From positions 1,498 through 65,497 of the forward strand of contig CANBER010000001.1 of NCBI GenBank assembly GCA_947367795.1: DNA of 64,000 nt. Direction: 5' to 3'. Shown piece after piece: positions 17,967 through 37,929 of this stretch; position 1 is the first letter of the stretch, and each line of letters starts with the position of its first letter. The notes below the pieces were generated by a model. It saw nothing but the letters and a program-made list of their open reading frames with translations, did not search any database and was not told the origin of the DNA. Source of the stretch: an uncultured Candidatus Saccharibacteria bacterium. GTDB lineage: Bacteria; Patescibacteriota; Saccharimonadia; Saccharimonadales; Saccharimonadaceae. The translations under genes were made by a program, and so were the position numbers.

Positions 17967-18128
17967 TTATTTTGCCTCCTACTTCTACTTAGTAATCATT
18001 ATAGCATAAACTCTTCACAGTGAAAGTATTGACTTTTGTGTGCCTTTATGGATTCAATCGCTCCCGTTTTTTTAAAGCTCCAGTTGCGATGGAATGAATT
18101 GCGCTGTTCTAGGATATCCTTTAGTAGC

Positions 18129-18149
18129 TTACGTTTTTCAAAAACGTAA
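18129..18149. repeat. palindrome P1
   Basis: TTACGTTTTT-C-AAAAACGTAA. Confidence 0.9.
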
Positions 18150-18190
18150 AGTAGTTTGATGGCCAATAACAGAGGTGAGATACGAAAAAG

Positions 18191-18220
18191 TACCTTACGT
18201 TTTTTAAAAAACGTAAGGTA
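18191..18220. repeat. perfect 30-bp palindrome P2
   Basis: TACCTTACGTTTTTTAAAAAACGTAAGGTA. Confidence 0.95.
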
Positions 18221-18322
18221 GCGGTGGCTGGAGTTTTTTGTAAAAGTGCGAGATAGGCCTTTAGGGACTATCTCAACACTACGTACGGGTTCTAGTAATA
18301 TATAACTATAGCCTCACCTCCT

Positions 18323-18525
18323 CTATCCTTCGTCCGTAGTGGCAGTCTTGCAGTATCAGCCGGCAACTTGGGTGCGGTTGGCAACTTCGGCTACAGCAGA
18401 TCTTCCATTGCTCAAGCTTATGTTTCCGTTACCGCTGCCGGAATGTCATATTTGCTTTTTGACGCAGCTTTAATTTCGCCCACCAAAGACCAAAGTCCTC
18501 GTTGGTATGGTTTCCCCATCCGCTG
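18323..18525 (+). other. gene-less 203-bp CLec/FISUMP-like variable cassette (copy C)
   Basis: CTATCCTTCGTCCGTAGTGG...CGTTGGTATGGTTTCCCCATCCGCTG; reads LSFVRSG...RWYGFPIR*; in-frame stop at 18296 and no start codon after it. Confidence 0.85.
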
Positions 18526-18596
18526 ACAATCATCACAACAGTGCGTAAATATCTAAACCCTTAGCACTATCACTATATATAAACTAATAGGCTAGG

Positions 18597-18799
18597 CAGC
18601 GGATGGGGAAACCGTACCAACGATGGAGCGGGCCGCTCGACGGGAATACGCTAGACGCATTGAAGGCGAGGTAGTACGCGGTAGCAGAAGTAACTTGATC
18701 AAACATCACGGAAGTTGAACTCCAATCGTAGCCATGGACGCCGAAGCCCCCCAGAGAACCGTTGTTCAGATCAACGAGTCCACTACGGACGAAGGATAG
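18597..18799 (-). other. gene-less 203-bp CLec/FISUMP-like variable cassette (copy A)
   Basis: same ends; reads LSFVRSG...GYDWSS...AYYLAF...RWYGFPIRCLAY*. Confidence 0.85.
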
Positions 18800-18919
18800 A
18801 GAGTATTGAACGTAAAAATAACAGTTGACGAGGCTGGGAGCGTGAGTTCCCCATGCTGTTGGCTTAACAAAATCAGACACCCCGAGACGGAGTGCCTGAA
18901 AGTAAATCCTGGCCAGCAA

Positions 18920-36217: not shown

Positions 36218-36420
36218 CTATCCTTCGTCCGTAGTGGAGATGTTACCATCCCAAGCGGATCACTTAGAGATACCGGAAATTATAACTGCACCTGGTCATC
36301 TTTCGCCCACGAGTTAAGTTCTTCAATTTTCGCAAAAGCATATGATTTGACTTTTACCGATCTAGGAATTCGGCCCATGAACAGCAGCGATGATCGTTGG
36401 TATGGCTTCCCCATCCGCTG
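36218..36420 (+). other. gene-less 203-bp CLec/FISUMP-like variable cassette (copy D)
   Basis: same ends; reads LSFVRSG...TWSS...AYDLTF...RWYGFPIRC; in-frame stop at 36185 and no start codon after it. Confidence 0.85.
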
Positions 36421-36471
36421 CTACCTTTCTGCCAAAATACTTAGAATAAAAAACTAACTTTATAAAACAGT

Positions 36472-36496
36472 TTACGTTTTTTGAAAACGTAAGGTA
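36472..36496. repeat. palindrome P3, homologous to P1/P2
   Basis: TTACGTTTT-TTG-AAAACGTAA then GGTA. Confidence 0.88.
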
Positions 36497-36510
36497 AATT
36501 TTCAGGAAAT

Positions 36511-36536
36511 CGTTGGTTTATTTTCCCCATCCGCTG
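36511..36536 (+). repeat. isolated cassette 3' end
   Basis: CGTTGGTTTATTTTCCCCATCCGCTG vs CGTTGGTATGGTTTCCCCATCCGCTG (23/26). Confidence 0.85.
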
Positions 36537-36652
36537 CCTGATCAGAAGATCTACCGATCAATAGGCCTATCCCTAAATCCAAATTCTAACCAATGCCTAA
36601 GAATGCTATAATTAAGTGAACACCATTTACAATTATTTAAAGGAACACTTTT

Positions 36653-37189
36653 ATGCCACGCGCAAGAAGCAAAGAAGACCTAATTAAGGCCGCCAACGAA
36701 CAATACATCAAACTAACAAAACTAATTGATTCACTATCAGAAAAGGAATTGAATACCGATTTTGACTTTTCAGACGATCCGAAGAAGACAGAGCGTCACT
36801 GGGGCCGCGATAAAAACCTACGTGATATTTATATTCATCTCTACGAGTGGCACCAACTCTTGTTGAATTGGATCAAGGCTAACGCAAACGGAGAAGAAAA
36901 ACCTTTTATTCCTGAGCCATATTCTTGGAAAACTTATGGCGATATGAATGTTGAGTTTTGGCAGAAACACCAAAAGACCAGTCTAGAAGATGCTAAGGAA
37001 ATGTTTGAGAAATCTCATCAAGAAGTTTTGAAGCTTGCTGAGAAATATACGAACGAGCAGCTTTTTGGACGTGGAATTTATCCGTGGGTAAATACCGACC
37101 TGGGCTCATATTTCGTCAGTGTAATGCCTAGTCACTATGATTGGGCAATGAAAAAGTTAAAAGCCCATCAGAAAAATTGTGCAAGCTAA
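36653..37189 (+). CDS. ClbS/DfsB family four-helix bundle protein (DUF1706-like)
   Basis: MPRARSKEDL; RDKNLRDIYIHLYEWH; FIPEPYSWKTYG; SHYDWAMKKLK. Confidence 0.88.
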   Translation: MPRARSKEDLIKAANEQYIKLTKLIDSLSEKELNTDFDFSDDPKKTERHWGRDKNLRDIYIHLYEWHQLLLNWIKANANGEEKPFIPEPYSWKTYGDMNVEFWQKHQKTSLEDAKEMFEKSHQEVLKLAEKYTNEQLFGRGIYPWVNTDLGSYFVSVMPSHYDWAMKKLKAHQKNCAS

Positions 37190-37208
37190 TTAATAAAGAG
37201 GATAAAGT

Positions 37209-37674
37209 GTGGTTTATTTAGTCTATTGTGATAATAAATCAAAAATAATTAGGTAAAATCTTAGATGACAGCAAAACGATGGTGATTCGCGGTGCTGCTG
37301 GCCGGAAGATTCCCCATAGCCGAGTATTTAAAGATGAAGCGCTTTACTTTATGGAGAAAGGTAGCAAGAAAATTGCTGCGAAAGCTATTGTAAAAGATGT
37401 CCAGAACTTTGTAAAACTCGCAGACGGAATAATTACCAAAACGATTGAAGATAATAATGATAAACTGCGGCTCACCGGCAAGCAGAAAGAACGCTGGCAT
37501 AAGAAAAATCTGTGCTTAGTAGAATTTGAGAATGTAGAAGAAATTGAGCCATTAGATTTTGATCATCAAGGCAATCTGGATGACTGGCTAATTATAGACA
37601 AAATTGAGGATGTGGTGGTCGGCACCAGTATCCCGTATAATTATGAGAAACCAAAGTTACAACGCCGACAATGA
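37209..37674 (+). pseudogene. conserved hypothetical protein with apparent frameshift near 37245
   Basis: GTG 37209 after AAGAGG reads VYLVYCDNKSKI then stops; removing one A joins it to LGKILDDSKTMVIRGAAGRKIPHSRVF. Confidence 0.6.
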
Positions 37675-37699
37675 CTTGTAAAAATTTAGTAATTAATTA

Positions 37700-37902
37700 C
37701 AGCGGATGGGGAAACCGTACCAACGATCGACCGGGCCGCCCGACGGGTAGACGCCAGGCGCACGGAAGTCGAGGAGGTACGCGGTAGCAGAAGTAACAGA
37801 AGTAAACACCCGTAAAGCCGAAGACCAGCCGTAACCATCGAGGCCGAAGCGCCCCATAGAACCGGCGCCCAGAATGACGGTCCCACTACGGACGAAGGAT
37901 AG
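37700..37902 (-). other. gene-less 203-bp CLec/FISUMP-like variable cassette (copy B)
   Basis: same ends; reads LSFVRSG...GYGWSS...AYLLDF...RWYGFPIRCN*; no ATG/GTG/TTG in frame upstream. Confidence 0.85.
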
Positions 37903-37929
37903 AGGAGGTGAGGCTATATTATAATATAC

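Follow-up and report, generated by a model that had tools for sequence, protein, structure and literature searches.

Paired repeat cassettes in a Saccharibacteria genome as probable members of a dispersed archive of silent copies of a retroelement-diversified gene end

Introduction

In Neisseria pilE/pilS, Borrelia vlsE/vls, Anaplasma msp2, and Treponema tprK, a single expression site with a constant N-terminal part is accompanied by many promoter-less, start-less partial copies in which conserved anchors surround a variable core, and the expressed alleles are whole or mosaic copies of these. The R64 shufflon relies on the Rci recombinase and sfx sites, and its C-terminal cassettes lie tail-to-tail between short inverted in-frame sites. 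The Mycoplasma vsa and vpma systems comprise silent genes that lack 5' ends, carry the same short box, are clustered beside a recombinase, and switch by inversion. The features of the vls silent cassettes have been described (PMC2632889, PMC11499132), and in a survey of diversity-generating retroelements (DGRs) the largest number of targets was 7-8, with 7 non-adjacent targets in Treponema denticola (PMC5758913). Here we analyze a stretch of 64,000 nucleotides (the window) from an uncultured Candidatus Saccharibacteria bacterium, which corresponds to C1:1498-65497 of an 860-kb assembly in 38 contigs (labels C1 to C38 denote contigs of this genome, G000). Our subject is the segment 36218-37902 of the window, in which two short repeat cassettes, D and B, converge around two genes, together with a second convergent pair, C and A, in the same window. 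A preliminary description, made from the letters of the window, took such pairs for shufflon-like invertible units or for mobile units that can capture genes. We consider it probable that D, B, C, and A are instead independent members of a genome-wide archive of silent copies of one target gene's end, the variable repeat of a DGR, and the evidence points against the D/B segment being a functional invertible or mobile unit.

Targeted protein variation in bacteria relies chiefly on two strategies, DGRs and silent-cassette gene conversion, which have so far been described separately. Our literature search turned up no DGR linked with an archive of silent cassettes.

Results

The four window cassettes belong to a coding family that is spread over the whole genome. 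The core TTCGTCCGTAGTGG occurs 76 times in the 860 kb, and a profile search of the genome returned 73-82 cassette copies, each with an open frame of about 65 codons of the form FVRSG...GYGWSS...RW.GFPIRC. Of 57 full copies, 56 have an open coding frame, compared with 0-7 of 57 for each of the other five frames and with 15% of shuffled copies, and neither a start codon nor a long in-frame upstream open reading frame (ORF) was found in any cassette copy. Conservation of the cassette ends extends to synonymous sites, while in the middle all three codon positions vary and the partners of a pair are 39-44% identical. Rfam gave no match at the cassettes, and the cassette peptides had no match in Pfam or NCBIfam, even at an E value of 10. 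The possibility that the cassettes specify small RNAs was considered and rejected, given that an open frame is kept in the sense coding frame only. Half of the contig ends (38 of 76) lie within 400 nt of a cassette motif, and in the contig-end graph the contigs fork at k = 77 inside cassettes, the joining nodes having been filtered out of the assembly; the cassette family accounts for the fact that assemblies of the lineage share this repeat as their breakpoint. Neighboring cassettes within 3 kb of each other make up 25 pairs (13 tandem, 10 convergent, and 2 divergent). In G010, a genome of the same genus, the motif reads TTCGTCCGCAGCGG, a synonymous variant that leaves the encoded residues unaltered. 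About 125 sites carry it without variation, which indicates concerted evolution within each genome. The G010 cassettes (e.g., L026:417-458) are shorter and very often stand head-to-head about 12 nt apart, a preference opposite to the tail-to-tail pairs of the genome studied here.

The cassettes can be traced to a single surface-protein gene. The genome encodes five paralogs of a secreted protein with sub-threshold similarity to FISUMP (TIGR02145, E values of 1e-8 and 3e-6), of which the one on C19 leaves the contig at its left end about 40 codons before FVRSG would start. The complete target locus was taken from sister assemblies by way of its neighboring gene. The target gene there encodes 605 amino acids and ends ...GQDGNNYNIASPPLS|FVRSG...GFPIRCLAY*. 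The flanks common to most cassettes, TATAATATAGCCTCACCTCCTCTATCC upstream and CTAGCCTATTAGTTTATATATAG downstream, are the target gene's own sequence, which identifies the cassettes as 5'-truncated copies of the target's 3' end. The variable repeat lies at the 3' end of the 605-aa target, and the four window cassettes and the other dispersed copies carry neither a start codon nor the N-terminal domain. The preliminary description had suggested that the repeats are alternative C-terminal cassettes of a constant gene, and the 605-aa target supports this. It had also stated that no constant gene or recombinase adjoins the segments, and we likewise found none in or near 36.0-38.1 kb or 18.0-19.0 kb; what it overlooked is that the constant gene and a DGR are present elsewhere in the genome. 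A C-type lectin fold of the target was not demonstrated: the AlphaFold model has a pLDDT of 31.5, too low for a fold search, and a PDB sequence search with the target found no relative.

Longer silent copies exist as well. The last 77 nt of the right end of C15 and of the left end of C19 are identical, and C15 carries a 5'-truncated target copy that starts ...IANSNAPGSICPKNW, right after a terminator-like hairpin, and exceeds the 65-codon cassette. On C37 (683-3464), a 589-aa target paralog (sub-threshold FISUMP, TIGR02145 E value of 1e-8) is followed directly by an XerC/D-like tyrosine recombinase, and two silent cassettes lie just upstream of the paralog. Xer-like genes number three in the genome, on C37, C7, and C6 only. 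Switching of the vsa kind by the Xer-like gene on C37 was considered and rejected, because both motifs are missing, at the nucleotide level, from the C-terminus of the adjoining paralog.

The genome carries a DGR, with a reverse transcriptase gene and an Asn-rich template adjacent to each other, adenine-biased differences among the copies, and the 3' end of a gene as its target. The reverse transcriptase (C9:33784-34929, 382 aa) contains VIGNLTSQ and YVDDF and scores above the cut-off for PF00078 at C9:34168-34698; against NCBIfam, all of its matches were below the cut-offs, and an exact-sequence look-up returned no record. The template, FVRSGNVNLNNGSLRNFGINGYGW..., begins 345 nt downstream of the reverse transcriptase, and this template-repeat sequence on C9 is unusually rich in Asn codons (FVRSGNVNLNNGSLRNFGINGYGWSSSSVAFTSVTSATAYNLNFNASGVNPSNGPNNRWNGFPIRC). 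Among the 21 cassettes closest to the template, which include A and B, 10.7 copies differ per template adenine, compared with 1.4 per other base, making differences about 7-fold commoner at template adenines than elsewhere. The closest cassettes depart from the template almost solely at its adenines; in C13_256- and C29_289-, for instance, 20 of 24 and 21 of 27 template mismatches, respectively, fall at adenines. Cassette A has 38-40 template mismatches (20 at adenines) and cassette B has 36-40 (24-25 at adenines). Cassettes C (96-98 mismatches) and D (87-91, with 17-18 at adenines) misfit the adenine pattern, their 87-98 mismatches lying mostly at non-adenines. Aligned against the template, variability begins after the 5' motif and ends before GGTTTCCCCATCCGCTGC, a boundary resembling an initiation of mutagenic homology (IMH) site. 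The adenine within the 5' motif and the one in the ATC of the 3' motif are almost never changed, and the template and the variable repeat part ways right after CGCTGCCTA. These limits of variability agree with the description of DGR boundaries in PMC5758913.

The same arrangement is found in relatives. In the sister species G014, an Asn-rich template is likewise accompanied by a convergent variable repeat, and the adenine pattern recurs. Within the genus, orthologs of the reverse transcriptase with at least 66% identity are present only in G014, G016, and G010, and these are the genomes that hold 37-127 cassettes. Metagenome relatives keep the synteny, one of them lacking the template body. 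A 339-aa ORF upstream of the reverse transcriptase had no family match, and no Avd-type accessory gene was recognized. The master locus has a tail-to-tail pair of its own, formed by the variable repeat and the template, which enclose one small gene and are separated by about 1.1 kb; C9 runs on at its right end into the target's 3' flank. The small gene keeps one orientation in G000, L052, L059, and L060 despite the differences between their cassettes, which points to conversion rather than inversion. This gene (L052:9226-9543, equivalent to C9:35759-36073 of G000) encodes 95-105 aa with a weak match to CdiA_C (PF18451, E value of 0.002); it is conserved beside the reverse transcriptase in an 80%-identical relative, L045, and may be an accessory factor or a nuclease.

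The expressed alleles tie the silent copies to the target. The expression-site variable repeat differs in all six sister assemblies aligned, and the 90% protein cluster of the target contains 12 different expression-site alleles. Allele P0164 equals the silent cassette C7_256- at 66 of 66 residues, and allele P0154 (L055) equals C36_4670+ with 99.5% nucleotide identity over 220 nt. Only 15 of the 81 template mismatches of C36_4670+ are at adenines, and this cassette could thus not have been made by adenine mutagenesis of the present template. Allele P0166 agrees with C11_1468- at 62 of 66 residues and differs near the 3' end; P0166 and P0152 are mosaics. Cassette B of the window has its own expressed counterpart in allele P0157 (L059, sample ERZ14864075), which does not differ from B by a single nucleotide over the upstream flank and about 185 nt of the repeat, and which shares 64 of 66 residues with it. 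The B-identical tract of P0157 is followed by five differences within ten bases, then by an identical 3' motif, and then by the expression site's own flank. Expression-site alleles of other samples carry whole silent cassettes bounded by the 5' and 3' motifs, and the site retains its own flanks. Judged from these alignments, the pattern is the signature of a putative double-ended segmental conversion anchored on both motifs. The preliminary description had favored double-ended conversion over simple inversion, and the whole cassettes carried by the alleles within unchanged flanks bear this out.

Within the window, cassettes A, B, C, and D each span exactly 203 nt, counting both the 5' motif and the 3' motif. 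Their first 20 nt are identical, and their 3' ends are nearly so. Cassette D (36218-36420, plus strand) is a variable-repeat copy of the strongly diverged type, 65 codons long and lacking a start codon (FVRSGDVTIPSGSLRDTGNYNCTW...RWYGFPIRC), in which CTATCC is the sole remnant of the canonical 5' flank. Its 3' flank (36421-36539, plus strand) holds a hairpin, TTACGTTTTTTGAAAACGTAA, at 36464-36496 and an orphan second 3' motif at 36509-36539. Two plus-strand genes follow. The first (36653-37189) encodes a DUF1706 protein of 178 aa (ClbS/DfsB family, DinB-like; PF08020, E value of 2e-53) and is low in G+C. The second (37279-37674) had been described as frameshifted, which we could not confirm: it is an intact 131-codon ORF with no family match, and sister assemblies annotate a 131-aa gene in its place. 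Cassette B with its canonical 5' flank occupies 37700-37929 on the minus strand (cassette, 37700-37902; flank TATAATATAGCCTCACCTCCT, 37903-37929). The peptide of B is FVRSGTVILGAGSMGRFGLDGYGWSSALRVF...RWYGFPIRCN*, and its 5' flank is target-gene coding sequence (YNIASPPLS). D and B share their first 20 nt, CTATCCTTCGTCCGTAGTGG, as perfect inverted ends with 1645 nt between them (arms 36218-36237 and 37883-37902, 100% complementary), and the stretch that they enclose has a G+C content of 37.7%, compared with 47.7% for the window.

At the second locus, cassette C with its canonical 5' flank lies at 18298-18525 on the plus strand (cassette, 18323-18525) and is of a diverged type; it has lost its Cys codon and ends ...GFPIR followed by TGA. 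Cassette A with its canonical 3' flank, CTAGCCTATTAGTTTATATATAGTGAT (RCLAY*), lies at 18560-18799 on the minus strand (cassette, 18597-18799), directly after rpsG. The two 3' motifs are separated by 71 nt, and the inverted arms (18321-18342 and 18780-18801) are 22 nt long and 100% complementary. The observations of the preliminary description at both loci, namely, the convergence of each pair, the low-G+C plus-strand genes between D and B, the 20-nt 5' motif as inverted segment ends, and the lost Cys codon of C, were accurate in coordinates and motifs. The arrangement exceeds what chance would give, but it is no peculiarity of these two loci. The likeness of partners is confined to their ends: over the middle 154 nt, D and B are 40% identical and C and A 42%, and the resemblance between D and B is limited to 20 nt and 29 nt at the two ends. 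Sharing only their ends, D and B look like independent members of the archive.

The D/B locus was found in three other assemblies (ERZ14231479, ERZ14864654, and JGI 3300006217) with the same gene order and orientation, and D, the orphan 3' motif, and B are 100% identical in them. At the assembly level, the shared order and orientation cover G000, L040/L042, L041, and L043. The silent loci B and D are thus constant across these three assemblies while the expression site differs in the six aligned. A 144-nt stretch of the window (36393-36536), comprising the 3' motif of D, its flank, the hairpin, and the orphan 3' motif, recurs as a 97.9% identical module at the right end of C22, where a convergent cassette follows 72 nt on with no genes between. 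Given this cargo-free module, the simplest history is that two genes were inserted into a cassette pair or were lost from the C22 copy. Of the 12 genus genomes, only 3 have homologs of the DUF1706 gene. These homologs lie at other loci, and those in G010, G007, and G011 have no flanking cassettes and no inverted repeats of at least 18 nt. The DUF1706 protein is 84% identical in G010, where the neighboring core gene DUF362 is only 60% identical. A comparison with genus relatives was too diverged to give an empty site (DUF362, 53-64% aa identity).

Several further features of the sequence deserve mention. Two hairpin palindromes, TTACGTTTTT..AAAAACGTAA, adjoin the C/A pair at 18125-18220, and palindromes of this kind (those at 18125-18220 and 36464-36496 included) lie no more than 180 nt from a cassette at 9 of 11 sites in the genome, often paired 66 nt apart. 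An open frame that enters cassette A (18584-18919, minus strand) begins at the codon after the rpsG stop and in the same frame, such that read-through of that stop would join S7 to cassette A; this is probably a matter of chance (one chance in three). Nine plus-strand sites between 1379 and 58128 carry a 52-nt promoter-like repeat, TTGACTTTTT-N-TGTGATATAATGGAAGGATAGGG, whose tail, GAAGGATAG, matches the cassette 5' junction in reverse complement. A cassette at the left end of C3 has directly upstream of it a large serine recombinase (about 560 aa) and a tRNA-like stretch, and this contig end may be the border of an integrated element.

Discussion

Our findings suggest that the D/B segment and the C/A pair owe their appearance to a much larger system. 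The silent copies would be the 5'-truncated last ~65 codons of one surface-protein gene, in which the 5' motif would mark the 5' limit of homology with the template repeat and the 3' motif would serve as the IMH-like 3' boundary of mutagenesis. We infer that segmental gene conversion, with the two conserved ends as anchors, copies the sequence of silent cassettes to the expression site. The DGR may also rewrite the cassettes in trans, given that each cassette keeps both anchors. The inverted 20-nt ends of the segment would then be the mere appearance of two convergent family members, and the two enclosed genes would be ordinary accessory genes lying in, or inserted into, a cassette pair. A donor-cassette role that can be tested, and in which B has a demonstrated match to an expressed allele, thereby takes the place of a speculative invertible or mobile element.

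A number of observations weigh against this reading. Transfer may instead have run out of the expression site, in which case the silent copies would be deposited records of its former sequences. Convergent pairs exceed divergent ones (10 versus 2), and pairing may have some structural role. At the template position, L052, L053, L059, and L060 have a variable-repeat-like sequence instead of the Asn-rich template, which in L060 equals the expression-site repeat. L051 and L053 have a reverse transcriptase that is split or absent. It thus seems that the DGR component is not active everywhere and that some lineages have it decaying or overwritten. Finally, the assemblies that carry the D/B locus are clonal, with 2.5 kb of flank 100% identical, and cover little evolutionary time; orientation was read in three other assemblies, and 21 further contigs were grouped as having the same neighbor with their orientation not given. 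The invariance of the D/B locus is a short-term statement.

A more ambitious version of the archive, which we put forward tentatively and hold to be less likely than the simpler proposal, is a machine of two tiers. The DGR would write adenine-mutagenized variants into the expressed gene, into the ~80 silent cassettes in trans, and into a template that is itself periodically replaced, while gene conversion would read the archive back and convergent pairs would act as preferred landing sites. Replacement of the template would carry mutagenesis past the original adenine sites, and the inverted IMH ends of convergent pairs could extrude as cruciforms.

Among the competing explanations, the one that survives best, although we think it improbable, is that the cassettes are inert debris, i.e., leftovers of partial duplication or retro-copying of the target's 3' end, such that the matches to alleles merely record past alleles that were dumped. 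The lack of start codons, the absence of any demonstrated expression signal of their own, the scatter of the copies through intergenic DNA, and the unproven direction of transfer all fit such an origin. Neutral decay, however, would close frames and erode ends, whereas 56 of 57 copies keep the frame open although their middles share about 40% identity, and the ends show perfect conservation at synonymous sites. Among assemblies of the same study, moreover, the silent loci stay constant while the expression site differs, and one expression site contains C36_4670+, a strongly diverged cassette that mutagenesis of the current template at adenines cannot produce.

We regard it as quite unlikely that the two cassettes are the ends of a composite mobile element that captured, and can move, the DUF1706 gene and the 131-aa ORF. 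The cargo is low in G+C (37.7% versus 47.7%), and the patchy distribution of DUF1706 across differing loci of the genus, together with its 84% identity in G010 against 60% at DUF362, suggests horizontal movement of the DUF1706 gene. Against such an element, the DUF1706 loci of G010, G007, and G011 are free of them and of long inverted repeats, the paralogous module on C22 is free of cargo, and among the ten convergent pairs of the genome only D/B encloses genes, the nine others having none. There is no transposase, the outer flanks differ with no target-site duplication, that of B being target-gene coding sequence, and D and B are unrelated in age and flank type.

Least probable of all, and very doubtful in our view, is a shufflon-like segment in which site-specific or homologous recombination between the inverted 20-nt motifs flips 36218-37902 and changes what joins each cassette, for although the ends are perfect inverted repeats, the genome has three Xer-like tyrosine recombinases (one adjoining the C37 target paralog), and the master locus shows the variable repeat and template tail-to-tail around a small gene, neither end of the segment adjoins a constant N-terminal gene and flipping would express nothing, no recombinase is nearby in the window, the gene order is unchanged and in one orientation in the three other assemblies read, and the small gene at the master locus keeps its orientation in all four assemblies compared despite their differing cassettes.

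If the archive is as we propose, both strategies of targeted variation act on the same 65 codons of one surface protein, in a genome of 860 kb of which the archive takes up about 2%. Compared with known DGRs that have multiple or remote targets, this system is alike in having the reverse transcriptase beside the template, adenine-specific differences between template and variable repeat, a variable repeat at the C-terminus of a surface protein with a conserved IMH-like 3' boundary, and targets far from the reverse transcriptase. It is unlike them in that about 80 variable-repeat-like sequences, some 10 times the survey maximum, lack a start codon and N-terminal domain, in that many cassettes diverge well beyond adenine sites, and in that the template is overwritten in some strains. 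With the R64 shufflon it shares alternative C-terminal cassettes arranged tail-to-tail between short inverted in-frame sites; it differs from the shufflon in lacking an adjacent constant gene and recombinase, in showing no second orientation, in the genome-wide spread of its cassettes, and in an exchange that leaves the expression-site flanks in place, which indicates conversion. As in the Mycoplasma vsa and vpma systems, the silent genes lack 5' ends and each opens with the same short conserved box, but the loci here are dispersed and the evidence points to conversion plus DGR mutagenesis. The likeness to the pilS, vls, and msp2 type lies in one expression site accompanied by many start-less partial copies with anchors, and in alleles that are whole or mosaic cassettes. 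In contrast to that type, the cassettes are scattered genome-wide as singles, pairs, and short arrays rather than held in one array, the host appears to be an ultra-small bacterium with an 860-kb genome and not a classical pathogen, and a mutagenic reverse transcriptase acts on the variable core as well.

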